Position numbers and translations under genes: made by a program. The notes under the pieces are model-generated. The model did no database searches. It saw nothing but the letters and a program-made list of their open reading frames with translations, and was not told the origin of the DNA. A stretch of 64,000 nt of DNA from Amphibalanus amphitrite. Lineage: Eukaryota. Positions 17,047-56,531 of this stretch are shown here, piece after piece. Each line of letters opens with the position of its first letter. Position 1 is the first letter of the stretch. The DNA lies in the NCBI RefSeq assembly GCF_019059575.1, contig NW_024881521.1:729297-793296 (forward strand), given 5' to 3'.

Positions 17047-20000
17047 CTGAAAACAGACGCGACGGTTAGGTCACAGGTCAGAGGTCACAGGCAAAATGTC
17101 ACAGGTCATGGTTGGGAAAAATGCCCTCGAGGCAGACTACTAGATCAGCATTTTGGGCCTACAAATGCGTAAATGATGTAAATGTGCATGTGATGCAAAC
17201 GGCCAGTGGGACGACACATAGGCAGGGGTCACAGGGAACATTCGAACAAGTCACCTGACCCAGACCAACGGCATTTAGAGCGCCGCAGAGGGTCACCTGA
17301 CCTAGGTGATGGTCGGTTGGGACCACAGGCACCGCAGCCATCACTACGCAACCGCCGAAGGAAGGGTTATCGACGGGTGACCGCACCGTGGACAGTAAAC
17401 GGTGGGATGAGCTCAGAGGTCAACAGCGCAGAGGCTCCTTCAACACCAAGTCCAATCTTAAACCCACCGACAAAGGAGTTGCGATAGCTCTGTTGAATTA
17501 ATTAATAACGACCGTCTCCATCAAAGAGACATATATTTAGTAACATCCTTTGTCACCACCGCCCAGACGTTTTCAAACCAGTCTACCAGCTCCGCCCGAG
17601 TCGCAGCGTTCCGGCGCCATCGAGTTTGATCGGCTTATCCCGCCGGTCCTGAGTCCTGACAGCTCCCCAGTCCCATGACAGGAGCGTCTGAGCTGCGTCC
17701 TCTGAGCCACCGGGGCCGCGATTTCGCCGTGAGCTGACGACGGACCCTGAATGGGGAGCCGGCGGACCGTCACTGGCAGTTTGGGCACCACAGAGAGGAG
17801 CAGACTCGGCCGCCGACGACAGGGTCGCGGGACGACAAAGCGCGGCACACCCTCCACCTGAATGGGCGGCGTCCCTGGCGGCGACAGTCAGCCGTCTGAA
17901 CGGATTAACCTGGGGAGGCTGCTGCTCTCTCTCCGGGACGGTCGCAGCTGCGGCGGCTCCGCTCTGCCCTGCTGCCGACTGTCCTCATAGGCCAGAGGGG
18001 AGGATGGCACTGTCACCGGCGGTGCCGACGAGCGGCTCTGAGCAGCGCGATCCGCCGCGACTGATGCCAACTGATGGCGGATCATGGTGGCGGCGCTGAC
18101 GGCAGCACCGAGCCACGACAGTCTGGACGAGGGTCTCCATCAAACGAGCAGCCGCCGGTGACCGGTAACACGAGTGGCAACACGGGCCAGACCTGTCGTA
18201 CGCTGTGGGCGATCCGATGCTGGCATTAGTGTGTGCAGTCACTGCTGGGACCGAGGCTAGGAACAAAACCAAAACCGACCCCAGGTTTGGGATAAGTGTT
18301 TGAAACGTCCACCGTCGCCGCTCAAGCGTCGTGCACTGTCTGTCGGCTGTCCGTCCATCTATCCTGCATCATATGCCCTTCGTCTGTCCGACCGTCCGTC
18401 CATCCGGCTGTCTGTGGCGAAGGATTCATCCGTTTGTCTATTCGTGTGTGGTGGTGAGGGTGCCGTCCGCCCGTCCGTCGTCCGCCACTCATCGTCTGTC
18501 CGTCTGTCTGCCCGTCGGTCGGCGGTCGGCGGTCGGCGCCGCGGCCGCAGCCGCAGCCCGTCCGGAGCCCCAGGCGGTGCCGGCCGCCGCACCAGACCAA
18601 TCACTCCACCGCTCATGACGAGACGGCATGCAACGCGCGCCCACCGCCGACCGGCCCGGCCCGTCCGCTCAGCTTCGGTCCGCGAGCAAAGCTGATGGAC
18701 GGTCCAAGGCACGTTAGCAAAGTGAAGATAGGAGTCGGCATCGGCAGTGCAGACAACTTCTCCGGGAGGATGCCGGTAGGCCAGAGAAACCTTGCATGCT
18801 ATCCACGGGTTTGACACGGACCCATGATTCTGACCACCCTGTCTAGCTAGCCTGTCGCTTAGACAAAGCTCGACTCCAAGGGCCGTGGTTTCAGACAACC
18901 ACCCTGCATGTCTCTCCACCGCCGCGTTGACCACCCATCGCCCCTGCACAGCCGTCCCGCCGCCACAATCGGCCCCCCAGCGCCCGGAGCCGTCAGGTGG
19001 TGGACGCTGTTTTCCGTTCGAGATCAATTATTGCGCCGGCGGCCTTGGCGTTAAATGCGCACGCCGGACAGCGATTGTGCTACCTCCGAAGGGCCCGCGA
19101 CTGCTGAGGGTCACCGAGGCGCCGGCTGGGCCCATTGAAAAGACCTGCGAGCAGTGTGTAGCCTGAAATACCAAGCGGAAGTCCGCGGAGCTGCGTTCTA
19201 GGGTCGGGCACACTGGGTGACCAGGCATGGCGTCCAGGTGCAATGGCGAGGCACGTGATGACGCCACCGGGATCACCTATGTTGACAGCCGAAATCCCCA
19301 TCACGCCGCGCCCCGACCCGACACGCCATCAGCGTGGCGTCATCGCCGGCAATAAAGGACGCGTCCCGTCGGCCGGCCATAAAGGCCGGTTCCTATCGGT
19401 GCGATATGGCAGCGCCGCTGAGCCGGGTGCAGCTCGGCCGCTCAGATAACCAGCAATAATCGCCGCGTCCGCGTCCACTGTCACGACTAATTTATGGCCC
19501 GGAACGGTGACGCAACGCGCTCTGAGGACGGTCGCAGACGGGCGTGATGCAATGGCCGTATACTGCAGTCGTGATTAGCGGATATGTATTGGCGTGTGGA
19601 TGAAATGCAGACAATGCGACCTGCCGTTTCAACAACAAAATTGTGCGCGACTTTTTTCGGCATTAATAACTCAACGAATGTTCAGTTGAAAAGAGAGGCT
19701 CGTGTATCATTTAAATTTGATCATCTCCAACTCAGTCGGTTAATCGGTAGGAATTCATTAAAAACGACAGGCCGTTTGAGTGACGAACGATCAAAGCAAA
19801 CCGAGCCACCGAGCTGGCTGGTGCACCATAGCTCATTTGTCAAGTAAACTACACCTGGGCATGGCCTGCACAGTGCAGAGACCAAGCCCAACACATCATC
19901 TGTACACAGCACAACAGTCGGTGGCCGGCGGACAATGCAGTTCTGCAGCTCGGTGCTGCACGCCGGACAGTGCTACATGTCCGGCCGAATTTCGCCCGGT

Positions 20001-20078
20001 GTGTGTCCCGTGGAATGCGGCCGTCTATTGCGCCGTTCGCCATTGACAAATGTGCACAGCCCGTTCAGCGGTACTCAC

Positions 20079-20220
20079 GTTATATATGATGTATTTCTCC
20101 GTATCCTCTTCCTTGGTCCATTCACTGTAGCTCGGACAGATAATGGTCACCTGGTCGTACTCGAACAGGTTGTTGCCCTTGTTGACGTCGATGATGTGGT
20201 CTGTGTTGCTGATCTGGAAT
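20079..20220 (-). CDS. Ephrin RBD exon 2: (I)FQISNTDHIIDVNKGNNLFEYDQVTIICPSYSEWTKEEDTEKYIIYN
   Basis: Minus-strand acceptor cctttttcag|A and donor AAC|gtgagt. The D.LDIICP...YYKLY(L)V-like block of the ephrin receptor-binding domain. Phase-continuous with exon 3 and with the exon 1 donor. Matches ORF 20025..20246. Confidence 0.85.
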
Positions 20221-23200
20221 CTGAAAAAGGAGAGAGACAGGCCCAAGTCAGATGATGTTTGACGCCACAGAATGGCATTTCAGACAGAAAGGGTTCACTG
20301 CATGGCGAGCTTTAGTGCGGCTCTACAGGGCATTATTACAGCCAGTCTGGGCGAGTCCAACAGGGCTAGCAGCACCAGTGAACAGACGGGACTGGGACTA
20401 GAGCAGGGCCAAAGAGCACCAGACACGACCGGCCGTCAGCGCACCGGGCCGGGGCGGGGCTCGACTTCTCCGGTCACGCCGTTCCGGCCGTGGCCACGGG
20501 CACTGTCTGGCGAGGGTGGAGCGCCACACTCGCCGCCGGAGCGCCACTTTCGCCGCCGGCAGCCGCGCACGGCCCACAGGAGGAGGAAGGAGTGGAAGAG
20601 GAGGTCAGAGTGGGCCGGGCCGCCCCACAGAGAGCCGCAGGGCATGGCGAAAAACGGCGCTCTCATGATCGGAGAATACGACCGATAACGGTATCCGACC
20701 CGACCCGACGGATGCTTGCCACTTGATCACAAGTCAGCGTTACACATAGCCGTGGATAGGCTCTACGGGCACCTTCTCCCGATTACTCCCTGACAAAACC
20801 ACAAATCCGCACCTCACTAAAATTCCGCTCCCACGCAGAAAAACGCGTTTTCTTGGCAAATACACGCGCACAGTCATCCCTCGCACGCAAAGGCGGCGCG
20901 GTGAATTAGACCCGCCGTGTGGCGAATTAGTCCCGAAGTGGTCCGAATTAGGTCTGCTATCAGCCGGGCGCGGGGCGCCACGTTTGCCCCGGCCCCATAT
21001 TGACACAGCGCGCGGAGCGGGATAAGGGTTTCCTGCGCCGGCCGTTTGCTCGGCGCGGCGCGGTGTCGAATGGCACCGGCCGCTGGGGGCGCGCTGTTTG
21101 ACAAATCGGAAGTGGATGGAAGCGGTCAAACAGGAGTGGCGCCGCCGGTCAATACGGGGTCAAACAGCCGGTCGGTCGGACGGACGGCCAGCTGGTCCCA
21201 CCGGACGTCCGCCGCGCGGCGCGGGACTCGGCGGGTCGGCTCGGCCGTGCAACTATCGGCGTACTGCTGACACTGCCGGCGAGTTGATACAAAGTACCGT
21301 TCCCAAAGACCGACACAAACATGCCAAACGTCCAGTCGGCAAAGAGTAATCGGACACACGACCGCCGGTGATAGGAATTTAGGGGCCGGTAACTCTACCG
21401 ACCACGGACCTCGCGCGGCGGTATATCTGCAGCGTGCCCTCTGCCAACAGTACCATGTTCCGCGCCACACGGGCCTTTGTTCGGGGCGGAGGGCGCGTCT
21501 CCGACCGGCGCCAGGTCGACGGGAACACTCTGACGATGCCAGACCGATCAGAGGTGGTCCGTGGTGAGGTACACATCGTGCTCGTCAGGTTGATCTGAGT
21601 CGGGCGCCGTGCCAGCCAACTGTCGGCGCGTCGGCACTGACCACGGCCCGCAAAACTGCTGAGACGACGGCTCGATTCAGCGCTACATACAGGCAGTGGT
21701 GCAGCGGCGAGGCAGCGCAACGCAGGGGTACACACGCACACAAACCACCGTCACGCATTCTGCGCACGGACGGAGGGGAGAACGGCGCAGGGGAGAGGAG
21801 GGGAGCCGAGTCGGCGGCGGCGGTCCCCTGTACCGGCGCGGTGAGACGGATACCCTACACCTGGCGTGTCGAGCGGCAGGCGCGTCGCACAGTCGGCAAA
21901 CACGGTCCGAAATCCCACAGACCGGCGGCGGTTCAGCAGCCCAGGGGATCACTGGGGACTCGAAGATGGAACGGACGGGGTCGACCCGCACCCTGCCCTC
22001 CTTTACCACTCGCTCATCCAGTCACCCTCTCTGCCCGCGCCTCCCTCCTCCACTCTCTCCTCTCTGCGCGGCGCGCCGTTCTCGCAGATCCGTATCGTCG
22101 CCGCCGGCGGCGCCCGGCCGGCCGACCGACCCAGATGTGAGCGGCGCCATCATCTCCGTCGAACGGGAACGGACGGACCGCCGCATCGGCCGGCCGCCTG
22201 CCTCCCAGCGCACGGACGGAGGGGAGCACCGCGTCTCCCCGGCCCGACAGATCAACACATGACTGACCGACCGGTCCACTGTCAGGGTTGATGGACGAAT
22301 GGGTAAAGGGACAATCCACAGGGACACAGCCCGAGGGTCGCACAATAGCAGCGTGTAAAGGCGCACGTGCCGCGTGTGTTTCAGTCCACGTGTAATCACC
22401 ACTGCCTGGCGTGTTACACGTGTTGCCGCGGTTACGGCAGCAGCGGACTCGCAATTATCGCCTAGGGGAGAAGGCGACTGCAGAGGACGTGGTTACTGCT
22501 TCGCGGTCGTAGATCACAGCTGGTCTACCGCAACACTGCCAGTGCAAAATTTGCCCCCGGCTTATCCTACCTGTACCAGCACTGTCCCGGATCTACGGCA
22601 TTGTCCCCTCTGACCGTTGTTGCGCTTTACTCTCTGGCTGCTGCTGACACCATAGCTCCCAAAGCGGGCTACACCAGCGCACTACAACTCACTCTTGGAA
22701 AGTGTGGCGGCACACGCGGCGCGGCGGAGCCCATTAGTGCACTGAATGGGCGGCGGCAGAGGTGGGCAGGGCGGCTGCCAATCGCGCGGCGCACGACCTC
22801 CGCAGCTGCCGCGCCGGGGCCCGGAGCCGGAGACGGCCGCCGCCGGAGCCGGGCCGGGCCGGACCCCGGGTCCTTGAGTCGGCGTGGGAAACGCGCACCG
22901 ACCGGTAGATCATAAGAACTGGTTGTCGGCATGTCAACCAGACAACTCAGCAGTCAATAGATTTGATTCATTGCATTCCGCAGGATAAAGACAAAACAAC
23001 TTGCAAGCTGTCCATTTTTGGCAACAAAGGTGGCCTCCCATAAAGCTCCTTTCAACATGCGCAATGAATTATGAATTACGACAAAATAATGCTCCCGCAA
23101 AAACAGCGAACAACACAAATACTGTGTAAAAACAATGCTTGACCTCCAGTCGCCAATCAGGAACCCTACCACAAAGCGCCTGCAACATCCGCCACCGCCG

Positions 23201-26200
23201 CCGCCGTCCACGTATCGTCGCAAACGACGAGTCGCCGTCCGCGCGTCGACCACCCGTAAACCGACACATTCCGGCTTCACAGCCGCACGCGGCGGGGCTT
23301 CTAAGCCATGGAAAATAAAAACTGCGCCGGCTCCGATGTGGAGTTGGGATTAGCGATCACGCAGTCGATACAGCGGCGGAGCAAGGCGATGGAAGGGAAA
23401 AACGGCAGCACATAACAGACGAAATAATGGCATAACTTGCACAGAATGATCAAAAGTGGCCACGCCACTGAACAGAAGATAAGGAGGATAGAGTGAGCCA
23501 TTGTGCTGAGAGGTAAATACACCTAAACGGGCTGAAGAGCATGTCGGGCTTCGAAAAGCGCACTGTGAGAGTAGCTGAATAGGTAGAGGTGAGAGACAGA
23601 AGAAAAAGAAAAAGAAAGAAGAGAGAGGGAGAGAGAAGAGAAATATGTGGAGTAATAGGAAAAGGGAAAGGATATAAATTGAAACCTATCTCTCAATGAA
23701 CAAAGAATGGAGAGATAACAAGAAAAAAGGAGAAACATCATTGTGTTACGTAAAGCCCTTATTCATATCCCACGCATCGGTTGGGCTGAATCGATACCTT
23801 GTTAGAAACCGGCGCCACCCGTGCGCGCGCTCACTCTCCCACCATCTGCCGGCGGCGCGGCGGTAAGACAAGATCTGCCTGCCGGGAGAGTCGGCTCGGC
23901 TCGCCCCCGGCGGCTGGCCGATCGGAGCGCGCGCGCCGGCAGCCTCCACCCTGGCCAGAGCGGCCGGCCCTCGCGCCATGCAGATCGGTCGGTGTGGGAA
24001 CAATGGCCACTCTGTAATTTGGACGGACGCTCGCCGCATTGAGCGCCGCTTAGTTAATCGTTCCAGCGCCCGACGCTTGTGTAGGAGCCACGGGGCGAGC
24101 CAGAGGGTGAGCTAGAGGGAGAGCTAGAGGGAGAGTCGGCGGGAGCCGAGGCGGTCTGAGACTGTGTCGCGGAATGTCAGAACGGCCGGCCGAGCCGTTC
24201 GAGATGAGTTAGGAATGCATTACAGAGACAGCGGAGAGGTCAGCCAGACATTAGCGGGTAATGTGAGAACGGCCACATCAGTCGGAGCTGCAGACTCGCC
24301 GAGTTGAGCAGCTGCAGGCGTCGCCATTCCGTCCAAGGCCACTCAGGTGGGCTGGTCGGCTCTCCAGTTACGAAAAATGGTAACGGGACTTCGCCCTAAG
24401 CAAGAAACGTCCAGCCGAGCCCGCTAAATCGGCTTGGCGGTGACGCGAGGCCAAAACGGGGCGACACTCGGCGCTGATCCGACTAGACTATAGCCGACTC
24501 GCCGACATGAGCCGCGGCAGAAATTAGGAAATACCTTGAATAATGTACTTGTTGTTGGCCAGTCTGTTGTTCTCGTGTAACTCTCTGAATATTAACCACC
24601 ACCGAAAATAAATGATCCATCTGCCCGCTGACCGGCCGAACTCAGTGAGAGTAAGGGCCTTCAAGTATCGCCGGAACCGAGTATACGACGGCGCCAGCGT
24701 GTAATCTCTGCAAAACCTCGCCGGTGGAGCCAGCCTGCATGCCTGCACATCGGTCAAATATCCGCAGCGGATGCCGATTACTCTCATGCAACAAAGCTAA
24801 TGTGATGACATTTGAAGCATGCAATCGCTGCAGCGCTGTTGGCCGCTTGATGACACGAAGATGCAGCGAAAAAAGAGCCTCCCACACATTGATGGGAGAG
24901 CTAGAGTTCAATGAAAGTGAATGACCGCGGCGACTTCAGTTGGCCACAGCTCGGCAGCGGCAAATGAGACGACGGCGGACGACGTTCAGGTCCAAGGCTG
25001 GCTACAAACCGCCCGCGGCGCAGGCATCGCTCATCAGGGAACACACCATTTGGAGATGAACGATCGGCACGGCGAGCACCGAGTTATTATGGGATGGGAA
25101 GGGATGGGATGGGATGAGGCACGTGGGTTGAGAGGAACTTTGATGGGATGAGATGTGTGGGAATGACATAGAATGTAAGGTGAGATGGGGAACAGCATTG
25201 GGCAGTGTGGGTGGGAAACAGAGGCAGGTATGACAGTCCTATATTGTCTACACATTTTCTTGAAGCAACGGGATGAACAGTAACACGTTCTCTGGCACAC
25301 GAGGCTGCGTAGGAGAGATTAACTGCGTCTGAGCTCCGGCGGCGCCGCCCTCCGACAGAGCAACTGCTGTTGGGAGAGTGGCCCGTATCTCTGAATTCCT
25401 GGCCTCCCACCCAGTCGGTCGGCGCTGCGCTCTGAAGTCACCTCTCTGTCTCGGCTCCGTGCCGTGGGCCGCGGCCCGTGTGGGTAGCTGCAGGAGGCGG
25501 CCACTCCGAACAGCTCCCGGCGCCACCTAGCGGTGTATCATCGGCGCAGATTGGCAGATAAGCACGTGACCCAGGCATTTCGTGAGTCAGCGGAATCGGG
25601 TCGGCGCCCGGCGCTCGGCGGTCGACGCTCCGTGTCGGTGCCATGTGTCGGCAGCTACAGGACTGAGCGCACCTGTAGATAAGCCGCGCCGAGCGCCGGT
25701 CGGGAGACTGGCCGCGGTGGTGGAACTATTCCGGGATGGTGGGCACTGGGCTCAGATTGACCTATTTACACGGCCCGTAATGCGCCGTGATATGATGATC
25801 AATAACACGCTGAGCTGTGATCGGCCGATCGGCATTCCCCAGAGGAGCTCACGTCACCGTGAGCACGGTCGGCGCGCGGCGCCGGCGACCGGTAGCGGCC
25901 GAGGTGTCTCGGCGCCACATGCAACGCCGTTATCAGTCACGGAAGGCGGCCGGGCGCCGTGAGCCGGGCACGGACTCACAGCGGAGCCCCCGGGGGTCGG
26001 CCAACCGACCGGTCGCCGCTGTAGGGAGTCCCTCGTGAGCTGCGACGGTGCACGGACAGCACCGGTCTTTATCCGTCGGGGCAGGAGTGTTCTGGCGCAG
26101 CACGCAGCGTTCCACGAGGTGCATACTGCATAATGCACCACCGGCGGCCACAGCACAGCGGCGATCGTAGCGGGTCGGCGCCCACAGGTCATAAACAGTC

Positions 26201-27635
26201 GATAAGGGCCACCGACCCGCCGCCCGGCGCACTATTCTCGTCCCTACGGCCGATCGACGGAGATGGATCGGTGCGGCCTATCGGAGGGCCCGATCGGTAG
26301 ATAGCCAGCTAGTTCCCCCGGAGAAATATCTCCAAAACGCGCGTCGTGCGGCGGCGACTGTCACCTGTGCGCCATTAACTGCCGCCAAAGGCTGACAGCT
26401 CATTAGGGGGACCTGACGACCACGGGGGGACAACAAACTAGTTCCAGTACAGCCGACCGCGGGAATATCGGAAAGAAACTGGAGCGGAGCGGGAACGGGA
26501 ACTGAGAGAAGAACGAGAGACGGAGCGGGGCAGCCGTGCAGCCTGAGAGCGATGACGATCGCCCGCCTTGCCGCAGTCTCCACCGGCTTGATGCTGCTAT
26601 TCCAGGCGGGCAAATGTGCCGGGCTGTGTTTTTAGAGTATGTTTAATTGCCGGTTGAATGCTTGTCGACATGAACATGTGCTTAGCGCTGGCCTCGGGGA
26701 TGTTGTTGATGCATCCGAGCGGGCCGGCACTGGCAATGAGTTGGCGGCTTTCAGGGTTGACATTCAGCCCCGCCGGAAAATATGAAAGTAATCCCGACAC
26801 AATAATTGAATAGACCGACAAAAGCGCACACATGCAAAACCAAACACGGCTCGTTCCGCGCGTAAAAAGCCCGCGTAAACAAGACGGCTGGCATTCCGGC
26901 GGGTCGACACTGAGAGGCGGTAAACGGCGCCCCGACCTTGGCCGGACACACCGCGGACACAGAAACAACAACCCGGGATCGGCGCCAGCGACAGAGGACT
27001 GCTTCCGGGAGGGACACTGTCCGCCGGGTCCTACGGGAACAGGAGACCATTGGAAGGGGGCTGCAGGACTCACAGCTCCGGATCGGGACTGTCAGAGCTA
27101 CATAACTTCAGCAGCAGCCCCAGCTCTCCAAGCTACAAGCCATGAGCCGTGCCAGCTTCCGAGCTGCAGCTGCTCGGAGCGCGGCGTGACGCCTCCTCTC
27201 CAGCAGCCGGTCACGTACATGAGCGGCCATCTTCGGCGCGCGGCACGGCGCGGCGCGGCACACCCCACTGGGAGGAGGAGCCCCGCAACACCTTCGATCC
27301 TCTCCACACTGCAACTAATAGACCCAATCTACATATGAATAACACTACCGAACCTGCACCGATGTATGAATATAAAAAGCCGACATCTTGATTAGGATCT
27401 TGAGAAGTCGTGAAGGAGCGTGGGCTCGAGCCATAAATTCGACATCGGCGACTGCCACTGACCGCATGATCCACCTGCCACGGCTCGATTGCTGTCATCA
27501 ATTAGACTCGCCGGGCGGAGGCGGCGCACCACAATGCTCACGAGTTTGACATGTCGCCGCATCAGTGTCAGCGGTGTCCGAACTCGCCACAGACGGCCTC
27601 CGCGGCCGGTCGTCCTTCCCCATGGTCCGGTCCGG

Positions 27636-27920
27636 CCTCGCAGTGGCACCACCGGCCTCGCAGGGGCACCACCGGCCTCGCAGGCATCACGGCATCACGC
27701 AGGCCGCAGGGGCACCTTGGGCCTGTCGGGGGCATCACGGGCCTGTTGGGGGCACTTAAGGCTTGTCAGGGGCACCACAGTCCTGTCAGGTCCCAGGGGC
27801 ATCAGCAGCCTAGCAGGGGCACCCTAGGCCCGCCAGAGGCTCCACAGGCCTGCCAGGGTCCAGGGGCACCACAGGCCTAGCAAGGGCACCACGGGCCTGT
27901 CAGGGGCACCTCAGGCTCCC
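27636..27920. repeat. Minisatellite, ~21-bp unit (ggggcaccacgggcctgtcag-like) x ~13
   Basis: Direct reading of 27640-27910. Confidence 0.8.
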
Positions 27921-27926
27921 GTGCTA

Positions 27927-28246
27927 CCCCCCCCCCCCGGATCCGCCAGTGATGCCACACCACGCGAAACACCGCCAACTACCAGCTGCCGCGCCATAAA
28001 CACGTGCCAACAACAGTCTTTTTGAAGGTCGACTCCGCTCGCGCAACTTTTGACTGACCCTCACTGCTACCATATTGCTTCCATATTATGCTGTGGAAAC
28101 TTTACTTCACCAAGTGGCTAAAAACCTCCATCAAGGTATATTTTCTTAGAAATTTTCTGACGTTTTGGGGGGGGCCAAACAGGCCACTTTAGGCCTTTGG
28201 GGGGGGCCATGGCCCCCGTGGCCCCCCCCTGGATCCGCCAGTGATG
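27927..28246. repeat. ~290-bp segment bounded by ~26-bp direct repeats (cccccccc[t]ggatccgccagtgatg) and containing G8/C8 dyad-symmetric tracts
   Basis: ggatccgccagtgatg at 27939-27954 and 28231-28246, each preceded by a poly-C run. Confidence 0.6.
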
Positions 28247-31200
28247 GTCCCCGGACCGCGGCGCGGGCCTCAGTGATACCAATCCGATAACGGATATCAT
28301 ATACGGCCCGCGCCGTGAGACCGCGCCGCCTCTGGTGCTAGCGCCGCTGCCGTGTCGCAGTCTCCAGTGTTAGCGCCCTGCCGGCCGCGCTGCGTTGCAG
28401 TCTCCCGCCCTCCGGCCGGTCCCGCCCACCAATCACGCTCTCTCGCGCCGCAGCGCCTGGGAAAAATGCACCGGCGTGCCGACCGGCGCACGCCAGCACG
28501 TGCAGAGGTCAGGTCAGGTCAGTGGCCGCGCCTGTGTAGCAGATACGGCAACCCACTCATATTGAGATATCCTCCAACGCCCCAGTGTCGGCCTAAAAAT
28601 GCATTCACTCGAACCACGTTAGTACCCCGCCCCTAACACGTTAACATCTTACCTCGAACACGTTACCGCCTGACCTGCGCATGAGCACCTGACCCGGAAC
28701 GCGTTAGCGCCGGTTCCAGCAAGTTGCGTCGGTGCGGTGAGCGCCGCAAATTGGCCGGCTCCCACGCCAGCAAGTTCCCGTTCCGACGCGGCGGCGCCGG
28801 CTGACCTCTGGCGGCCGCAGAGTCGAGTCTGCTGACGACATCGGTCGACATGTCCGGACCGGATTGAGCCGCAGCACGACCGGAGCCGCAGCGGGCCGGC
28901 GGACTGGACAGGCGGACCGGACAGTGAGCTCCCGCGGCCGGCCGGCCGGTGCTGGGGTCCACCTCACGGCTACCCAGCGGCTCAGCCGAGGATCAGAGGA
29001 TTCCGTGACGGCAGCACGGTCAGAAAATGGCCGACTGGGAGGGACTAAATGACGCTGGTAGGGAGTCGAGGCACAGGAAGCTGCAGAACCGCGTGTGCTG
29101 CTCACACACACCGGCCTGGATCGATGGGTTCTCATTGAGGGACCGACGGCGACACGGCACACCTGAATAGAATCACAGCACGGCGTCGGCGTCCGAGCAG
29201 CGCTCAGCCCCACACCGGCTTCACCTGTGCAGCGAGGCGGCAGAGGGGAGGCCAGATGAGCGCTGGATGAGGTGTAACACACGCGCCGACAGGGTTTGGA
29301 CGGGACGGGGGTGCGGCGCGGCGGCCCTTTGGAGTCCGGCCGGCGCGCCGGGGAGCCAATAATCCCCATCGGCTGGCAGCAGATGATGTGCGGCTCAGCT
29401 GGCTACAAAACATATTGCCGGCTCTGGGGCCGGACGAGCGCGGCTCCGACCTATCACACACCTGCTTATTATCTCGGGTGAGCGTGTGTCGCGTAGGGTC
29501 GTCATGACGACCGGAATCAATACTCTGCAGGTAGGCAGAGCGCCGAGGTTAGCTTCACGTGCGGGCGTCGCCGCCGGCTGCGACAGTGTGTGGGGCCGAC
29601 ACGGCGATCAGCGACGCTCGGCCGCCGGCTAGAGTTCACTGACGGCTCCAAATGCGTGTCGGCCATTTTCACCTGGCCGGTATTCAGCGAGCGGCGGGCT
29701 GCGGAGGGCAACCCGATATTTGTCGCGATGGGAGGAGCGCTCCCAGGCCGCGACGGGCGGGCACGGATGACATTCCTCAAAGGGTCCTTTGTGCGCCGTC
29801 AAGTGGGCCCGGCTGCTCACCCCTTGCCCGTCCCACGGGTCGGCAGGCACAATGGCCGCCTTTAAAAGCGCAGTACGGGGGAGAGTCCGCCCGGAATTCT
29901 GGCGGTCGGCGCGGCTGGGCGCCCCGCCGCGATCCGGCCATAGCCGACCCAAGAAGGGCTAGAGGAACGTGAGAGAGCCACAAGGAGAAACGCACTCGTC
30001 GTTCCGGCTCATTTAAACCAGCTCATTACCGTGCCGAGGGACCGAAGTTAATTACCGATTCATAAGGCCACTGTTTGGTATTGATAAGCTGTTTTGGGGC
30101 CGGCCGGACAGGCCTTTCTGGACGTGACAGGAAAATGAGCAGGATTTGGAGCGGTGCGGCCGCGCGTGCCATGACCTACTCCGCCCGCCGGACCACCTCT
30201 CCGGCTCTGAGCCCAGCTCGGCGGCGCGCGCGCCTGAAACGAAGCCCGGCGCATGACTTCATTGAGAGTGCGCCGCGAGCGCGCCACAAAGGCCGCCGCC
30301 GCGGCAAGACTGACGCCGACAATGTTTCGCTTCTGTTTGGCATCGATCACGGCGAGCTGAAACCCGAGCCGGTGCTGGCGGTGGCAAAAATGTGGGTCTC
30401 TGTGCGCTCGGGCGCCTCTGGCCGCGGCGCCGGGAGGGGACGGGGGCCGGCCGACGCCTGGGAGGCGGCTCCCCTCTCTGGGGAAACATGAGACCCCATG
30501 GGCGGGTGCGGCCGCCGCCCGGCACCCGGCACCGGGCCACGCTCGGAAACCAAAGCCAGCCTCTCAGTCACGATCTGCGCCGCCGGGGTGCCCACGCAAT
30601 TAGTGCACGCCGGAAACGCCGACTGACGCCCGTGGCACTCGATCAGACTCGCGTTTCAACTGGGACGTGTTTGTCAAAAACGCCGCATACGTTTATTCCA
30701 TTTTCCCACGCTTTTGTCGGCCACACATACCACTGAACAACAGCGGTTTTCCATTGCGAGAAAACACCGTACCGTCTCAATTCATCGCCGCTAACACGAC
30801 GACGACAAACGTAACTCAATGCGACATATTCGCCGGCGCCACGTCAGCCCACAAAACAAATTACAAACGAGTGAACCGAGCACAGAGGGACAGCTGCCCA
30901 GAGGAACAATGGCACGCGCGACGTGTCCCGTCGGCGACCCCCTCACTGACAGACCCGCTTTGTGAGCCCACCAGCCAAACCCAACAAACCCGGTGACGGC
31001 GGGTCCGCGTCAGGATTACCATTACGGCGTCCCGATTGGATTTGTCTGGCTGCGGCCGCTGTTTGTTGATGATGAGGCGGCTGTAGGACCGAGTGTGTGT
31101 TTTTCTAGCGGCAGCGGCGGGCTGGACGGCAGATGTGTCCGAGACGCGTGCACGCACTACGTAAACTAAGTCGCCGAGTAACACAGCTCAGCCCCGCCGC

Positions 31201-33325
31201 TGAGACGCACACAACCGCCGGATTACACGGAAACAAACCATTTGTTTATAGAACAAAGTCAACAGAGCTGCAATTAGGAAGTTATTGGAGCACTGATAGC
31301 ACACGAAGTCGATCTAAATCGACAACAGATGACACGGGGAACTATTACCCGTTTGTCTGAGATGCGGCAATTGCTTATCTAGCCAGAGATAATCTAGTCA
31401 AGCACACTGTCTGGCTGACGGGCGAACCGTTGCGTATAAAGGCAATCCAGGAAGCCGAGACTACGACAGGAAGACGTCACAACTCGGACCATCAGCCGTG
31501 CCTCACCGATACACCGGCTGTTTGACACACTGTGGGCCGACACAGACACCTCTGCCGCCAGGCTTACCACCGCCGCTGTGGAATAGCTCCGATCCTCGGT
31601 CTAAGGACGCCAGACGTCTCGGCCCGGCCCAGCACACCCGCGTCGGCCCGAGCGGCGTGCCAGGGGGCGGAGTCGAGCGACGTCCAAGGAAAGGACGTCG
31701 GCAGAGGAGCGACATCTGGCCCGGCGCACGCCACTGCTGCGTCAGGTCCGCCGCGCAGCGCAGGCAAATTGCAGAGCACTGGAGGGAATTTCCAGAGCGC
31801 GCCGGTGCGGCCGGCGGCGCTGGACCGGCGGCGGCGGCTGGCGGTTCAGTGTCCGCGGGCCGCCTGTGATTCATCCCGATCTGCCACGCCTCTGTAATGG
31901 GCCTCCACCGACCCTGAATTAATGCCGACACACCGCGCACGAATTAATCATATCGGAAAAATCGGTTCAGAGCTACGAGTTAATCGCCGGGGACGCCGGT
32001 GCCCCGGGCGGTCGAGGAGACGGTTGCGTGCTGTACCGAGCGGGACGGTCGGACCCCGCTCACCGATTTTCGACGCTCCATACATCACGGATGACCAAAC
32101 GGCCAATCGGGGCACCGCCTCCCTCCACCAGTCGGCCCTCCACTTAACCCGCATGTGCCAACAGCGCCGAACCGAGCCAACATACGCCCAACTCCGCTCT
32201 GCAGATGAGTTTCGCAGAGCACTGAGAGCGAAGCTGTGACTGCTGCCAGTGCGGTGCCCATGACCAGCCGCCCCGTCCTGCCCGGCCCCGGCCGTTGATA
32301 TTTACGATCCGGAACACGAGGGCGGCTGGTCCGCTCGTAAGGTGGCTCAGAATGCGGCGCGGCCGGCGGGGCTGGCAAACACCGCCCTGCGTCGCAGCCT
32401 CCTACCCCGGCGGCAATGGCGCGTGGCCGGCGCTGGCAGGGCCGCCGCGGCGGACCCGGCCACATGTGGTCAGAGAGGGCCGCTCTCTGCCGCCGCGGAC
32501 CCTCCCCCTCCCCCTTCCCCGGGGTGGCGCCCCAGTCGGTCCAACCGGCGGCAGGTACCGGTCGGTATTGAAAACCAGCAAACGGTAATGGGACGACCTC
32601 CGTCGTCGTCAGGGCCGGGTTAGGCGCAGCGTCCTCGAGCTGGGATTGGTCGAACGGCCTCCCCGTGTGCGATTAATGACACGACAATTATCTGCAGTCG
32701 CTTTGGAGACGCCGCCGCCGCCGCCGCCGCCGTCCCACCGCGCAGTGCACCGCGGGGGATGAGAGGGGAGGGGCGGGGCTACGGCGACGGGACTAACAAC
32801 CACCACGCACCCTTCGGGCGTGCCTTGTACCGCGTCCTGTACTCATTCAGTGCGCTATGTAGTCAGATGTTTCGAAAGAATCCGACAAAGGATTATCGCA
32901 AGGAGCGATATATCAATGAGCTATTTCGGGACAAGAGTCGCGCTAATTTTATCGCATTCTCCAAATGGTCGCAAGACAAAGCCCCATCTTTTCCCGATGA
33001 TAATGCTATGCTGATCGGGAATGGGATGATAGCTATCAGCACCGCACTGCAATCACATGCAAATGCCAGTCAGCGGGCCGGTGCTGAGCAGCTGGACACG
33101 TTTGACGCCCTCGCAGGGTCTCTGCAGGCCACCCCGTGAGGTCCAGCACCCCTGAGCTTGCTGGAGTATCGCCACGATACATAAGGTCGATGAACATTGA
33201 ACGGCATACCGGGGAGAGCGGCTAGGCACAGTACGCCCTCAGTCCTAATGACACGTGCTTATACCGTGCCGACATGAGAGGACATGACACGTCTCTACCG
33301 ACATCTAGCTGTCGCATGACAGACG

Positions 33326-34596
33326 CACAGTGGCCCTTTTTCAGAATTAGCACGCATAAATTCAAAATATTTTTTCTCTTCTTTTGAGTAAAAAGCAGTC
33401 TAATCGTGTGCAAAACATTCCAAACTATCCGATGGTGCCATTTTTACCTCCTAAAAACTAATTGTCTTTGGTAAAACTGACCGCAAAATCGAAGTTTGTC
33501 GAGAGGCGCGCGGACACCACCGGCGGACCCTAAAAAGTAGGGTGAGATGAACATCAATTTGTAAGGCTTTCGGTGAGAAAATGTTAAAAATTAGTGGCAT
33601 GGCTGTGAAGCTGAGTTTACGTAGAAGCCCTAGAAACCACAATTTTCATTGTATAAACTTCAATAGACCACTTTTGCCGAATATTGTGGACACAATAACA
33701 GGACAATTATTAACTGGAGATGGCGGCATACATATGAAGCTTTATGTTAAGCAGCACACTCTGGAACATGTCGTATTATACATCGTTCGAATCGCCGATC
33801 TCTTCTGACCATGTCCACCAAAGGGCATCGCGCCATTTTGCGCCATTTTGCTTCTACGGTGGATAATGTGAGCCAGTTCAGTCCGCGAGCGGCTGTGGCT
33901 CCTGTTCGATACGACTAAGCTCATTGACCTGGCTCGAAGCTGGTGTCACCAGGTGCGGTAAACCAGGTGTCACCAGGTGCGGTAATCTCACCAAGTGCGG
34001 TAAACTCAATTTGGGGTAAAATACCAAACTACCCCACTCCGTAACTACAAAAATACTACCCCGAAATTAGTTAAACTAGCTTGGTTAGGTTGGACACTTG
34101 GCCCAATCTCACCAAGCTAGTTTAACTAATTTCGGGGTAGTATTTTTGTAGTTACGGAGTGGGGTAGTTTGGTATTTTACCCCAAATTGAGTTTACCGCA
34201 CTTGGTGAGATTGGGCCCTGGTGTGCGCCTAAATGTGGCTTGACTTTTGCCATAAGATGTGCTAATTGAAATTATACTAACGGTGGCTGGCAACAGCTGT
34301 AGATGCGGTCACGTGACGCCCTGGGGCGTCCTGGCGGTCAGTGCAGCGCGGTCGGCTGGCGGGCTCGCCACACTTGCGTTCGGAGCGGCCTGGCCGGCGG
34401 GCGAGCCGTGCGAACGTGCGCCAAATCTTGGCCCGAGCGGCCTGTCGCTGTTGGGCCGAATCTCCTTGGGCAGTTCGTTTCTTTTCTTCTCTTTGCATTG
34501 GCAGGGAATACGTCCTTGATCACGTGGTGATGTCTTGCACCACTTTCAGGTATTGTGGGAATTAATGCGTGCTAATTCTGAAAAAGGGCCACTGTG
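33326..34596. mobile_element. Transib-like non-autonomous DNA transposon (1271 bp): 38-bp TIRs beginning CACAGTG (RSS-heptamer-like), 5-bp TSD AGACG
   Basis: Left TIR 33326-33363 (cacagtggccctttttcagaattagcacgcataaattc) is the reverse complement of 34559-34596 with one mismatch. AGACG sits at 33321-33325 and 34597-34601. No transposase ORF inside. Confidence 0.65.
33987..34208. repeat. Near-perfect foldback palindrome, ~99-bp arms and ~25-bp loop, embedded in the Transib-like element
   Basis: ctcaccaagtgcggtaaactcaatttggggtaaaataccaaactaccccactccgtaactacaaaaatactaccccgaaattagttaaactagcttggt ... loop ... exact reverse complement. Preceded by 3 tandem caccaggtgcggtaa units. Confidence 0.9.
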
Positions 34597-36295
34597 AGAC
34601 GGTCAAACCATGTCGACAGTGAGTGTCGGCGTCGGTACGACGGGCGCCGTGAGGTGTTCGGGGCGGGCCGGCTCGCGTCAGGTAACGGGTCACTCGGGAA
34701 CCTGACCGTGCCGGGGCGGGCCGAGCTCGACGGGAGATGCCATCTGGCCCGGCGCCGCGTGCCCGACCAGGAATGTAAGAGGCGAGAACGGCGCAGTGGT
34801 GACCGGTGGCGGCGGGACGGTGGGAGGCAGAGCCACATGGGGTATGGTGGGGTACATCACCGTTGCAGAATGCACTCGAGTCACAGCATCACCAGCCGGT
34901 AGAGTACTCACCTGAAACAGACAGAAAAACACCCATTAGTGGCACAGTCGGACACAGCACGGCGCGCGGCGAACAGAGGGACGCAGTGAGAGGGCACGTG
35001 CGCTTCAGCGCGGCGGGAGGCGGTCCGCTGCAGAGCGGAGAGAGGGGTACAGAGGAGAGGGACAGAGGCAGAGCGGAGGGCCGCCGGCTCCCCGCTGAGT
35101 CAGCAATACGTCACAATAGCCGCGCGGCCGACACGGCGCTGCAACTCCTCCCAGCTACAAAGCAGCCGACGGCCGGCGCCGCTCAAAAATAAAATTCATT
35201 ACACGAAACAGTTGGGCGCACAGCTGTATGGGCGGCTCGGGCGGCGGCGGGGCGGCGGCGGCTCGGGCGGCGGGGCGGGGCGGCACCTCCGGGACACATT
35301 GTCCCTGCCGAGCGGCAGCCGCAGCTGCGGCTTTGGCTCGTCTCCGGAGCCGCGCTCGCCGACGGCTGCGACGCGTCGCTCCCGTCTCGCGCGTCGCCGC
35401 GGCCGTCGCGTCGATATCGATTTGGCAGACGTCTCGCGCGTCGCGGACCAGCTCGCGCGCGCCTCGCCAGCTCTCAGGCTCGCTCCGCCGCCCTCGTTAG
35501 TCCGCAGGACGGCCGACAGCAGGTGCTTTGATGTGGCGCAGCGCTACGTCTGTGACGCTCAGCGACCGCGCGTGACGCTATGTGACTCCATGTGACGCTG
35601 CCGGCACCGTGACGCCAACGCCGGGAGGAGGACACGGTCGTTTTTCACATCGGTGTCACTTAGGACGACTGTCCTGGGACATTGTCCACCGGGCGAGCAC
35701 ACGAACCGCAGAGAAATTACTGGGATTGCGCGCGTTGTCGAGATAAACCGAGACGCAACCCTTGGCAGCCGGCAAACGAGTCACGTCGTGCACACCGATA
35801 ACATTCTGACCTCTGACGGTTCGGAACTTCTCTGGCGAGCAGCTCTCTGTACATCGCGCGCTACTCCCGTGCAATGTCACCCGCGCTCTTTGCCTGTCAC
35901 ACGTCGCCTATTCTGTCCACCGTCAAATGTCGGTCCCTGCCACCGCTATCCGCACAAACCATTTGCGCTACGTGAGGCCCCGATCTCCTGTATCCTTCCC
36001 CAGCACACCGCGGCCGCTGACAGTCCTGCACCTGCATTGCCATTCCATTGTGAGCCGTCAGCGACCGGTCAGAGAACGTGCACCTGCGCCAGAGCCGCCG
36101 CCACCGCGCCAGGATCGCCGCCGCAGCGTACAGCTACCGCAGGCCCTTCACCGGAGCGGGCCGGCCCCGCGGAGAGGCGGAACAGGTTGGGCAGGTATCG
36201 GTGATACATTGATTTTTGTGGTGGCCCGGTCTGCAGCCTGACCGGTGCGTGGCACGCCGGTCGAACCGGCTACCGACGACTCGGGGGTCGGCAGG

Positions 36296-36432
<137 letters not shown>

Positions 36433-39400
36433 TAGCCAGTCAGCCAGCCAGTCAGCCAGCCAGACACACAGACAGACAGATGAACGAGACCGGGAGGTGA
36501 GTCTGCTCCCACTCTGCACCGCGACGACCGCCGGAACGGAAGATCGCGGGTTGCAACAATCAGTGCGAAAGTTCAGCCCTCTACCTATAATCCTTTTCTC
36601 CTGGCGGACAGGTCCTGAGAGCTGAGAGTCCAACACATCCAAACCGCAGGCCGCACCCGCGAGGTCATGGTGTCGACAGCAATGAGAGGGGATGGGACTG
36701 GAGGGGAGGGGAGGGAGTCGCCTCGACCTTCAGTCATCACGATTAATACCGCAGCCAAACGTGGCCGGCCGGCTGACTGCAGCAGCGTAGACAACGAGCG
36801 GCAGGGAATCGGCCTGCACAGACTAATTGGTCCGCGACCAGATGACCATCCGCGGGTGGCGTCACGGGCTCATGATGACGTCAGGAGATCTCATGACGCC
36901 AGGGGATCTGATGACGTTCGAGATAGGTGAATATACCGGGCTGGTGAGGAGTCCGTCTCCAGAAGTCCCTAGTGTGTCTCGGTGCTGATACCAGCTCGTC
37001 CGCCAGGGCATGCCGTGTGTATTTGGCCAGGAAGCACTCACCCAACGAGAGCACCGGTGACGCCCCCTGAGACCTGGCATCACCCCAGTGCGTCTCGGCC
37101 GGTCGGCACGCCTCTGGCCTTACTCCAGGCCTGGGTCATGTCGGAAGGGTCGTGCCTCAGGCCACTGGCACTAACCGGTCCACCACGCCGACCCGAAACG
37201 ACGCCCACTGAGCCGCCGCCGGCAGTGATCCTGATTCATGGTCGCCGAAAAGGAAATCTCGCCTCCGAGTTTTGGTCAGTCAAGGCAATTTCAGTGAGCC
37301 ATGTGTGAAATCCAGAACCGCAAGAGCCTGGGGAAATGCTTGCACTCAGCACGATGCATATCCTCCGAAGGAGTTGTTTTCCGATTCAGGACCCGAATTC
37401 GTGGCAGTATCGTTCCCGTCTTAATGCACTAACGTCGTCGCTTCATGACTGTAGTTTGATATGCACTTCGAGTCTGACATGTAGATGGCTACTGTCTGTC
37501 TGTCGGCGCATGTAATGGAACCGCCGCACAGATACCGCCGGCCGCCTCCAGCCGCGTCTCGGCCATCTCAGCCGTCTCCGCCGCTGTCCCCTGCAGAGCA
37601 CGCCATTCCCAGCAATTACGGCACGATCATAAATACGGCGGCGTGTCCCGTCTGAGGCCGACTGAGAGCCGCGCCCGCCGCCAGCACCGGACCGAGCACC
37701 TTTACGGTCTCACCGGGCGACACTCTATCGGCCGGCGCGGTAAAACCTCGGCCCGCCGTGATAAAAGAAAATCTAATTAAGTGGAAGGCCGGAGATTCGT
37801 CCAAACAGCGCTCGTACCGGGCCCGGCAGACGTGTCGGCCGGCCGGGTCAAAATTAGCCTTCAGTTGCCGCAATAAAACGGGATGAGACCAGAGTCGGGC
37901 AGAGGGTAAGGTTAATATCCTGGGAATGCTGTCGACGCCGGCCGTACAGGAACCGCAGCTATGCGCCGCCGCCGCCGCCGCCGGTCGGTCGGAGCGCCGG
38001 CGGGCTGCGGGCCGCGCCCAGACAGCCGCCGCCGCGGCCCGGGGACACTTCAAACGCTGCTGAGTGAGTGTGACAGCGCCGCGACAGCGGAGAATCTGCC
38101 GTCGGCTCACATCACACAGCCGTCCGGATGGACGTCACCGGCGTCGGCCAAACAAAGCATAATGTGGTCTGCAGAGCGGACGACAAATCAGACGGGGACA
38201 GCTCCGGTGATGAGGCGACTGTCGGCCGGGAGAGTCGAGCCGGCCAGCGGGCGGCGCCGTGCCCTCCGTCGCATAATGGGCCCAGCGGGAGGCCGCCGGT
38301 CGGGCCGACGGCCCAGGACGCCTCCTCTGTCGCCGGAGCGGAGGAGCACACCAAACACAACAGCCGCCCGGCGCACCCCGGCGCACTCCGGCGCAGAGCG
38401 CGCTACTCGGCGCAGGTCATCCAAACAGCGCCGCGTTTCTGGCAGCGCCTCCCCGGCCCGGCTCGGCGTGGATCGCCGTCGAACGCCGGCCGTCGACAGG
38501 CAGTGTCGTCTGGCCGTGTCCAGGTGTCAGCTCGAAGGTCGCGCTCGTTCCTGAGCGCTCAGCTGTGTCGCCGTCTCGCCGCTCGGAGACACAGCGCCCG
38601 GTGTCACCTCGCTCGCCAGCTCGGCGCCGGCTCGTGTGTCGGAACAGACGAGGGGCGGCCGCGCGTGGCGGCGGTGTCGTCGAAAATTGCCAGCAATGCC
38701 ACAATTCACGCGCCCGGGAGTCTTACTAAGCTTCCGTCATCCACGCGTCCACCCCGACTCCGTCAGCCGTGATTCTACCGGCGCCGCGCGCAGCCCCAGA
38801 CGCGCACTGATTGGCTCTAATTCCTCTGCGGTCCCTGACCAAACAAAGCGGCCCGAGTGGGTTCTGAAGTCGACGGCGGCGCGGCGGCGACCGTCCGGTA
38901 AAAACAGCCATTGTGGTGTCGGCGCCGGCCCCGCCCCGTCGAGTGCTCGTTACCGGCGTGCCACTGCCGACCGGTAGAGGAGGGAGGTGTGCGCGGACGA
39001 GCGGCGAACGCTCAGAGTCAACAGGTGTGAGACGCGCGGTCGGCTGCCGGGTCAGACAGACGGGTCGATCGACATGGCGTCACCGGGGCAACACTGGAGT
39101 ACAACAGTCTGCGAGAGGGAACTAAAAACGGTCGACTGAGCTCGCCGGCTCGCTCGCCGGATTGCACAACTCGTCTGTGTGCTCTGACAGGGGAGTGAGT
39201 AAGGGGAGGGGAGTGACCGGGTGGATCGGAGCCCCGGGAGCGCTCTCGGTCAACTGCAGAGACCCTTCTGAGCTCTGACGGCTCCCGCAGCGGTGCCGAT
39301 CTCGGCGACAGCTCGCCACGGGCGGCCGAGGCTGCGCACCGCCCCGCCCGGCCGGGGTCCGCCGGCGACGGCAGAAATAAAACAGTGCATTACTCGCTTC

Positions 39401-46769: not shown

Positions 46770-49700
46770 ATGCCTGTCGAGTTGCAGAGCAGCCGATGCA
46801 TGACGCAGACCGGGTGTGTATGTGTGTGTGTGTGTGGGGGGGGGGTGCGTGTGTGTGTGTGTGTGCGTGTGTGTTAAGCGCAAAGTGGCCGAGGCGTCGG
46901 CAGCGGACCAGGTGTGTAGTGAAGACAGAGTGGCCGAGGCGTCGGCAGCGGACCAGGTGTGTAGTGAAGACAGAGTAGCCGAGGCGTCGGCAGCGGACCA
47001 GGTGTGTAGTGTAAACAGAGTAGCCGAGGCGTCGGCGCCGGACCGGATGTATGCGTATGTCGATGCAGAAATACGGAGGCGGCCACTTAGAAAATACTTG
47101 AGACCTTTTTACAAAGAGACTCCTTGAGTGCTAAACCGAGCCTCCAAGGTGACTGGCTGAGATGTGTTTCTGCGGCAGCGTATGTCCATCAAGTTGCGTT
47201 CGGAAGCGCTTCTCGAAATGCGTGGTCTGTTTTGACAAGGGGCATTATCCTAAAGCTGGTCTCTGAGGCAAAAAAAAAGAGATGCTGTTTTCCAGTCCCG
47301 GCGAAGAAAAAAAAAAGAATGTCGAGTTGCAGAGCAGCCGAGGCGTCGGCGGCGAACCTGTTGTATATGTATCTACGTATGTATGTATGTATGTATGTAT
47401 GTATGTATGTATGTATGTATGTATGTATGTATGTATTCACGTCATAGGGCACATCCCCGTAATTGAGGCTTTCCTGTACCCTGGAGTCGTTAATATAAAA
47501 CAGACGATCAGTTGGGTCAGCATACACATACATACACATGCACACACGTGCACCCACATGCACACATCTAACCAACCCCCCACGTTGCCTCGTCAACAAG
47601 TGCTGCTTTATCTCGCTATTGAAGCGGCTCCCAGGCAGGTTTCGTGTCACGCTTAGCAAGATGTTATATGCGATGACAATAGCGTGTCTGAACTACGCCT
47701 GCCAGACTCCAATCGAATCGCCGGCGTGACTAAATGGTCTGCGTTCCGTGTTGTACGGTACGGCGGTGAACATCTCCACGAGTGACCAGGTCGCCGGCGA
47801 TCGACTCAGGCTCTGATGTCACTAAAAGGCGCTTTAGTAAGCTAAGTGCCTACCGTGTTGCAGAGGGCCGAGGTGACGGCGGCGCACCTGGCCCTGTAAA
47901 TTGCAGAGTAGCCGAGGCGTCGGCGGCGGGCCTGATGCGTGTGCATGGGTTGCAGATTAGCCGAGGCGCCGGTGGCGGACCCGATGTGTGCAGGGGTTAC
48001 AGTGCAGCCCAGGCGTCGGCGGCGGGCCCGATGTATGTGCATGAGTTGCAGAGTAGCTGAGGCGTCGGCGGCGGTCCTGATGTACTTACGTGCAAGGGTT
48101 GCAGCGTAGCCGAGGCGTCAGTGGCGGACCTGATGCGTGTGCGTGAGTTGCAGAGTAGCCGAGGCGTCGGCGGCGGGCCTGATGTATGTGCCGTTGCAGA
48201 GTAGCCGAGGCGTCGGCGGCGGACCTGATGCATGTGCAGTTGCAGAGAAGCCGAGGCGTCGGCGGCGGACCTGATGTATGTGCCGTTGCGGAGTAACCGA
48301 GGCGTCGGGGGCGGACCTCATGCATGTGTGTGAGTTGCAGAGTAGCCGAGGCGTCGGCGGCGGACCTCATGTACGTGCGAACATGGGTGGAGAATTGTTT
48401 TCAAAGTTGGTATGGCGCCAGTTGCTTGAAACAATACTATCGTGTTTTATTCTTATCAAACTGAAAACCTTAAATTTCGTAGCTTTTACCCTGAAAAAGT
48501 TGGTATGGCATTGCCATACCATCTTTTAAGTTGGTGTGGCGCGTGCCATGCCTGCCATACCATATTCTCGACCCATGCCGGTGCAGAGTTTATGGGGTGG
48601 CTGAGGCTATACGACGGCGAGCCTGATGTGTGTGCATGAGTAGCAGAGGAGCCGAGGCGTCGGCGGCGGACCTGATGCAAGTGCATGAGTTGCAGAGTAG
48701 CCGAGGCGTCGGCGGCGGACCTGATGTGTGTGCGTGATTTGCAGAGTAGCCGAGGCGTCGGCGGCGGACCTGATGTATGTGCGTGATTTGCAGAGTGGCC
48801 GGGGCGTGTCGGCGAACCTGATGTGTGTGCGTGGGTTGCAGAGTAGCCGAGGCGTCGGTGGCGGACCTGGTGTATGTGCAGTGCAGAGTAGTGATGTCAA
48901 CTACGGAAAATCGGAATACCGATACCAAACCAAGTACCAACCTAGGGTGCATTATACCAACAAATTACCGAACACATTAGGAATCAAATACCAAGTACCG
49001 AGTTGGTATCAGTATGGTATCGGTATACCGAAAAGTTGTATCCGAGGACATCTCTACTGCAGAGTAGCCGAGGCGTCGGCGGCGGACCTGATGCATGTGG
49101 GTGCCGAGGCGTCGGCGGCGGACCTGATGTATGTGCGGTGCAGAGTAGGACGTCGACTACGGAAAAATCGGAATACCGATACCAAACCAAGTACCAACCT
49201 AGGGTGCATTATACCAACAAAATACCGAACACATTAGGAATCAAATAGCAAGTACCGAGTTGGTATCAGTATGGTATCGGTATACCGAAAAGTTGTATCC
49301 GAGGACATCTCTACTGCAGAGTAGCCGAGGCGTCGGCGGCGGACCTGATGCATGTGGGTGCCGAGGCGTCGGCGGCGGACCTGATGTATGTGCGGTGCAG
49401 AGTAGGACGTCGACTACGGAAAATCGGAATACCGATACAAAACCAAGTACCAACCTAGGGTGCATTATACCAACAAAATACCGAACACATTAGGAATCAA
49501 ATAGCAAGTACCGAGTTGGTATCAGTATGGTATCGGTATACCGAAAAGTTGTATCCGAGGACATCTCTACTGCAGAGTAGCCGAGGCGTCGGCGGCGGAC
49601 CTGATGCATGTGCGTGCCGAGGCGTCGGCGGCGGACCTGATGCATGTGCGTGCCGAGGCGTCGGCGGCGGACCTGATGCATGTGCGTGCCGAGGCGTCGG

Positions 49701-49910
49701 CGGCGGACCTGATGTATGTGCGTGCCGAGGCGTCGGCGGCGGACCTGATGCATGTGCATGAGTATTTATGTGCGTGAGTTGCAGAGTAGCCGAGGCGTCG
49801 GCAGCGGGCTTGATGTATGTGCAGTGCGGAGTAGCCGGGGCGTCGGACGCATTGCAGTTGCAGAGTAGCCGAGGGGTCGGCGGCGGACCTGATGTGTGTG
49901 CATGAGTTGT
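46770..49910. repeat. Composite satellite block. It contains a 45-bp unit x3.5 (46885-47045). A ~49-bp monomer (gagttgcagagtagccgaggcgtcggcggcggacctgatgtatgtgcgt) forms arrays at 47880-48370 and 48620-48890. A ~245-bp higher-order unit x3 lies at 48895-49630, and a 31-bp sub-array at 49560-49905. (GT)n sits at 46814-46874 and (ATGT)n at 47376-47436.
   Basis: Direct reading. Identical ORF-track peptides at 49003..49248, 49260..49493 and 49516..49761 confirm the ~245-bp period. Confidence 0.85.

Positions 49911-56423: not shown

Positions 56424-56531
<108 letters not shown>

Follow-up and report, generated by a model that had tools for sequence, protein, structure and literature searches.

The 1,271-bp insert at positions 33326-34596 of the stretch of DNA analyzed here (64 kb in total, referred to as the window) is probably a non-autonomous Transib element without coding capacity, Transib being the superfamily of DDE cut-and-paste DNA transposons from which RAG1 evolved. 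This assignment, which is based on sequence features, is supported by every structural test that was run, and it places a pair of long terminal inverted repeats (TIRs) and a 5-bp target-site duplication (TSD) at the center of the argument.

Structure of the element

The limits of the insert can be read directly from the sequence. A preliminary description of this DNA had reported an element with exactly these limits, with near-perfect TIRs of 38 bp that start with CACAGTG and differ at one position, and with AGACG on both sides, and all of these features were confirmed. The two identical AGACG copies occupy positions 33321-33325 and 34597-34601 and form a direct repeat of exactly 5 bp; the bases next outward differ. 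The left TIR (33326-33363, plus strand) reads CACAGTGGCCCTTTTTCAGAATTAGCACGCATAAATTC and is composed of the heptamer CACAGTG at 33326-33332, a 22-bp spacer and a nonamer-like block, CATAAATTC, at 33355-33363. The right TIR (34559-34596, minus strand) reads CACAGTGGCCCTTTTTCAGAATTAGCACGCATTAATTC as its reverse complement, with the heptamer located at 34590-34596 and the nonamer-like block CATTAATTC on the minus strand of 34559-34567. The two repeats are identical at 37 of 38 positions, and their similarity ends abruptly past position 38. The sole mismatch, at position 33, may be shared by other members of the family.

A chance origin of this combination of TIRs and TSD is excluded. When the 30-nt terminus was searched for in the window with up to three mismatches allowed, matches were obtained at the two ends of the element only, and none appeared in 100 shuffled sequences. 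Likewise, a structural scan of the window for CAC...GTG inverted-repeat pairs matching at 14 or more of 16 positions retrieved the element as the only pair with a flanking repeat of at least 5 bp, with none found in 30 shuffles. The arithmetic chance of a 5-bp match of the flanks at the local base composition amounts to about 0.001. As a side observation, the four bases outside the two TSD copies are mutually reverse-complementary (TGAC-AGACG...AGACG-GTCA, 33317-33325 and 34597-34605); this two-fold symmetry of the target flanks was noted post hoc and has a chance expectation of about 1 in 256.

The base composition shifts at the boundaries of the element, which has a GC content of 47.5% (mostly 38-48% along its length) compared to about 58-70% in the flanks. 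Its longest open reading frame comprises 86 codons, and a six-frame query made from the element retrieved no homologue among 5.8 billion proteins, which confirms the earlier statement that it has no coding capacity. The left half is AT-rich, and a segment of approximately 66% GC is recognized by its base composition near the right end (approximately 34290-34470); no other part of the window matches it.

The most conspicuous internal feature is a near-perfect palindrome of 229 bp at 33984-34212, consisting of 110-nt arms with 98% complementarity and a 9-nt loop. Folded as DNA, it reaches -145.3 kcal/mol (z = -29). Internal tandem copies spaced 24 and 18 bp apart (…CACCAGGTGCGGTAA…; 33937-34002, plus strand) extend into the palindrome, whose outer ends carry the motif of these repeats. 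A nested insertion was considered and rejected, because the palindrome is not flanked by a direct repeat of its own, and for the same reason it is probably a component of the element. It could in principle also be an assembly artefact. If transcribed, the palindrome would give rise to a long double-stranded RNA of the type that serves as source of hairpin-derived small RNAs in arthropods, which is pure speculation.

Superfamily assignment and alternative classifications

The consensus TIR of Transib elements has been described as 38 bp long, with CACAATG as heptamer, a spacer that varies and the nonamer AAAAAAATC (Kapitonov and Jurka, 2005; PMC1131882). Two parts of it are conserved across 21 Transib families, the CAC of positions 1-3 and the A residues of positions 34 and 35, and the elements generate 5-bp TSDs in GC-rich targets (PMC1131882), with TransibN1_AG showing the target context c-NNNNN-g. 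For HzTransib from Helicoverpa zea, the TSDs are invariably 5 bp long and slightly enriched in GC, and activity requires the CAC (PMC4840297). The canonical 5-bp TSD of Transib also differs from the 2-4 bp of the CMC group (bioRxiv 10.64898/2026.08.26.747230). Note, however, that TSD and TIR traits vary even inside Transib and are regarded as support for a transposase-based classification, not as a substitute for it (bioRxiv 10.64898/2026.08.26.747230).

The element agrees closely with this pattern. Its TSD, AGACG, has the 5-bp length of Transib duplications in the single copy available, and its target context is cAGACGg, with c and g as outer flanks. Three of the five TSD bases are G or C amid a neighborhood of about 58-70% GC, which is compatible with a GC-rich target but, for one site in a GC-rich genome, of little weight. 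The heptamer CACAGTG at both ends matches the consensus CACAATG at six of seven positions, and both TIRs begin with CAC and have AA at positions 34-35. Positions 30-38 of the left and right TIR, as represented by the two nonamer-like blocks, agree with the Transib nonamer at six and five of nine positions, respectively. This match counts as moderate evidence for Transib, since the subterminal sequence around the block is rich in A/T and would show AA at positions 34-35 by chance in roughly 10% of cases. In addition, the TIR is exactly 38 bp long and ends with ...TTC, compared to a published Transib consensus of 38 bp ending with ...ATC. The agreement in length, the A residues at positions 34-35 and the nonamer-like block are evidence on which the preliminary description had not drawn. 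The host itself, which harbors an arthropod-type Ephrin gene, likewise counts toward Transib, a superfamily known from flies, mosquitoes, silkworm and beetle. With only one copy at hand, the Transib call depends mainly on the single 5-bp TSD.

One part of the original argument for Transib is weaker. Termini of the form CACNNTG plus a 5-bp TSD had been taken as the hallmark of this superfamily, but CAC...GTG termini are common to CACTA, Mirage, Chapaev and Transib elements (PMC12730594). The element may thus be viewed as a non-autonomous member of the CMC group, whose TSDs measure 4 bp (Chapaev), 3 bp (CACTA/EnSpm) or 2 bp (Mirage), and whose duplication of GACG, ACG or CG would then have been extended by chance. 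This reading is considered unlikely. CMC and Transib elements belong to the same wider DDE transposase clade, share 5'-CA...TG-3' termini and have a joint TSD range of 2-5 bp (PMC12730594), and some elements with Transib-type transposases are flanked by 3-bp or TA duplications, blurring the boundary between the groups (bioRxiv 10.64898/2026.08.26.747230). With a single insertion, a chance extension to 5 bp would be expected in about 1/4 of the cases from the 4 bp of Chapaev and in about 1/16 from the 3 bp of CACTA; the lengthening costs the CMC reading a factor of about 4, 16 or 64, depending on the subgroup. The TIR moreover shows the specific geometry of Transib (38 bp, A at positions 34-35, terminal ...TTC), and the element begins with CACAG, whereas CACTA elements typically begin with CACTA.

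An origin from some other group, or from no transposon at all, appears highly improbable. This would include a hAT-like or unclassified element with an atypical 5-bp TSD, a solo LTR, a local inverted duplication or an assembly artefact. LTR retrotransposons commonly generate TSDs of about 5 bp, the odd 229-bp palindrome might be an artefact, and the repetitive nature of the insert lacks proof from a second copy. In contrast, the sharp limits of the TIRs, the perfect TSD and the break in GC content (47.5% against about 60%) together are a signature of transposition, and nothing comparable occurred in shuffled sequence. A solo LTR was rejected by its terminal dinucleotides, since LTRs end with TG...CA rather than CA...TG and carry no 38-bp TIRs. 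A bacterial or Tn3-like element, for which 38-bp inverted repeats and a 5-bp TSD would be in line, was rejected because the window is eukaryotic, containing no long genuine open reading frames and many minisatellites, and because the termini are not of the GGGG type. An affiliation with hAT was rejected as well, since hAT elements have 8-bp TSDs and a G at the third terminal position (PMC1131882), whereas the element has a 5-bp TSD and a C at this position. An 8-bp duplication, which had been named as a finding that would speak for hAT or another family, was not seen on re-inspection, the flanking 8-mers GACAGACG and AGACGGTC being different.

The least probable alternative is a non-autonomous RAG-like (RAGL, ProtoRAG-type) transposon mobilized by a RAG1L-RAG2L pair rather than by a single-gene Transib transposase: the preliminary description had called the element ProtoRAG-like, and RAGL transposons do have CAC-initiated TIRs, 5-bp TSDs and non-autonomous copies (PMC7204232), while the heptamer of the element is identical to the CACAGTG consensus of recombination signal sequences (RSS), but the RAGL TIR consensus CACTWMCAAACKTYKBB with its conserved AAA at positions 8-10 (PMC7204232) has only the CAC in common with the TIR of the element (CACAGTGGCCCTTTTTC), which shows GCC at positions 8-10 and none of the remaining consensus. 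Furthermore, RAGL elements are known from deuterostomes, molluscs, nemerteans and cnidarians, and none have been described in arthropods, whose elements are listed under Transib (PMC7204232); the host is arthropod-like. The ProtoRAG-like label thus finds no support.

Relatives and presumed mobilization

The closest parallels to the element are the non-autonomous Transib elements of insects, such as TransibN1-N3_AG, TransibN1_DM/DP and Hopper/Kodama of Drosophila melanogaster, which are likewise non-coding. Their TIRs of about 37-38 bp begin with a CAC heptamer and are laid out like an RSS23, and their 5-bp TSDs lie in GC-rich targets. Kodama, with about 1.4 kb, is also close in size to the 1.27 kb of the element, and non-coding derivatives of about 1.4 kb with 37-bp TIRs constitute the dominant mobilized form of a Drosophila Transib lineage (bioRxiv 10.64898/2026.08.26.747230). 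In contrast to these relatives, the element contains the heptamer CACAGTG instead of the commoner CACAATG, as compared at consensus positions only, as well as the 229-bp palindrome and the GC-rich block, and its host is unusually rich in GC.

The characteristic heptamer also invites a comparison with the 23-RSS of vertebrate V(D)J recombination. Both share the identical CACAGTG and a spacer of 22-23 bp, after which comes an A-rich block whose nonamer positions 5 and 6 are occupied by A. However, the nonamer-like block of the element agrees with ACAAAAACC at three to four of nine positions only, both of its ends are of the 23-type without any 12/23 asymmetry, and it represents the end of an invertebrate transposon rather than a signal located beside a gene segment.

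The presumed model for the mechanism is HzTransib, a biochemically and structurally characterized autonomous Transib that undergoes nick-hairpin cleavage at the border of the CAC heptamer (PMC4840297). It differs from the element in encoding its own transposase and in having TIRs with little likeness to the RSS nonamer (PMC4840297), whereas a weak nonamer-like block is present in the non-autonomous element. By analogy to the biochemistry of HzTransib and RAG, we infer that the element was mobilized in trans by a Transib transposase whose gene lies at another place in the genome. This enzyme would bind both 38-bp TIRs with the help of their distal A/T-rich block, and the CAC of the heptamer would determine where cleavage takes place. 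A nick would be introduced at the boundary between flank and heptamer, followed by the formation of hairpins on the flanking donor DNA and the release of a blunt-ended element. The two 3'-OH ends would then be joined to target DNA of moderately high GC content at positions staggered by 5 bp, and repair of the resulting gaps would account for the duplication of AGACG.

The intact TSD, the identity of the TIRs at 37 of 38 positions and the AT-rich composition, which has not been homogenized with that of the surroundings, suggest a relatively young insertion. The preliminary description had deduced an active Transib/RAG-like transposase in this genome from the copy, but one intact copy does not imply a present-day transposase activity. 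It would take a considerable stretch to regard this copy as the trace of a Transib lineage that is active today in an arthropod clade of unusually high GC content, with the most RSS-like ends known and a strong shift toward AT that would indicate a recent horizontal arrival, or, even more boldly, as a non-autonomous RAG-like element; both are very unlikely. If the RAG-like reading were true, it would extend the RAGL transposons to arthropods.

With this element, the known repeats of a GC-rich, arthropod-like genome are extended by a probable Transib family. Because such elements are common in arthropod genomes, the finding is real but ordinary: it marks one insertion in non-coding DNA and is mainly of value for annotation. 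The general interest of Transib elements lies in their kinship with RAG1, and this link is well illustrated by a perfect RSS heptamer in combination with the spacing of a 23-RSS, although the kinship was already established by 2005 and insects commonly harbor non-autonomous Transib copies. The value of the finding would rise only if the family turned out to be active, to have crossed between species recently or to be linked with an unusual transposase.

Further copies and genomic surroundings

No second copy was detected in the window, either with the TIR at up to three mismatches or by BLASTN with the whole element, and BLASTN and the structural scan retrieved no copy from 44 kb of three related contigs. 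Two complementary exact 22-mers of the TIR were absent from viral, prokaryotic-genome and JGI metagenome collections, in which the host is barely sampled, and a chimeric six-frame query directed at spurious open reading frames on other copies gave no match in metagenome and SRA contigs. These negative results carry little weight, since the collections are prokaryotic, viral or metagenomic and hardly cover the host. A Pfam scan of 20 open reading frames of the window yielded no transposase domain; note that one Transib transposase has been reported to give no hits in domain databases (bioRxiv 10.64898/2026.08.26.747230).

The empty site was reconstructed as GTCGCATGAC-AGACG-GTCAAACCATG with a single AGACG (...CATGAC-AGACG-GTCAAACC...), and no paralogue of it was found among the sequences compared. 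The alignment of the window with a syntenic metagenome contig, L002 (ENA ERZ25068762 ctg138304_2x_l), spans positions 11990-30147 and ends about 3 kb before the insertion; a chimeric protein query for the remaining 2.3 kb of this contig or for other orthologous contigs returned nothing. Over the aligned range, L002 is collinear with the window in about 30 blocks of 65-91% identity, which include non-coding DNA and indicate that the contig derives from a close relative. The collinearity of the non-coding DNA around the Ephrin gene suggests conserved regulatory or intronic elements.

Exons in the window were located by a GC3 screen and subsequent Pfam searches. The Ephrin gene lies on the minus strand at 15100-20279 and comprises at least three exons, at 20064-20225, at about 16864-17050 and probably at about 15.1-15.4 kb, the last one being seen in translations. 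The exon at 20064-20225 scores 32.7 bits against the Pfam Ephrin model (cut-off 25 bits). Exon fragments with 70-94% identity to these exons occur on metagenome and SRA contigs, and an identity of about 70% was obtained with a widespread cluster of 35 members, which one source labels ephrin-B and whose sequence we take to be an insect Ephrin. The host is accordingly an animal, very probably an arthropod. The element lies in unique non-coding sequence, upstream of the nearest mapped Ephrin exon at a distance of about 13 kb. On the plus strand, a SNF2-family helicase is represented by exons at about 4340-7112, with an SNF2-rel_dom at 4340-4564 and a Helicase_C domain at 6888-7112 (E = 7e-12); one of the SNF2 exons has a GC3 of 0.91. 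Scans of the window for tRNAs and Rfam families gave no hits.

With an average of about 59% and values of up to 71%, the GC content of the window is high for an animal, and the observed/expected ratio of CpG is 1.03, indicating no depletion. At least three related ENA metagenome contigs are GC-rich as well, among them L001 with 56% and L002 with 59% GC.

Several other repeats were recorded in the window. A foldback or MITE-like structure at 6119-6337, between the SNF2 helicase exons, consists of 60-nt arms with 98% complementarity (GGTACACTCGGGGGCAGATTGATG...) that are 99 nt apart. Its ends read TA|CACTCGG...CCGAGTG|TA, which may mark an element flanked by TA and bounded by CAC...GTG, although its boundaries are ambiguous because of a GTAC palindrome at the ends. 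In a large minisatellite of 71.5% GC at 69-3168, periods of 39, 48, 87 and 126 bp are nested within one another and a higher-order unit of about 984 bp is repeated; this array gives rise to an artefactual open reading frame of 1,078 codons. A cluster of related minisatellites with units of 36-49 bp (GCCGAGGCGTCGGCGGCGGACCTGATG...) extends over 46884-49757 and includes a higher-order unit of 257 bp in 3.2 repeats with 97% identity. Finally, long microsatellites are represented by (ACAG) x 45 at 36299-36480 and by about 130 bp of CT-rich sequence at 56429-56560.
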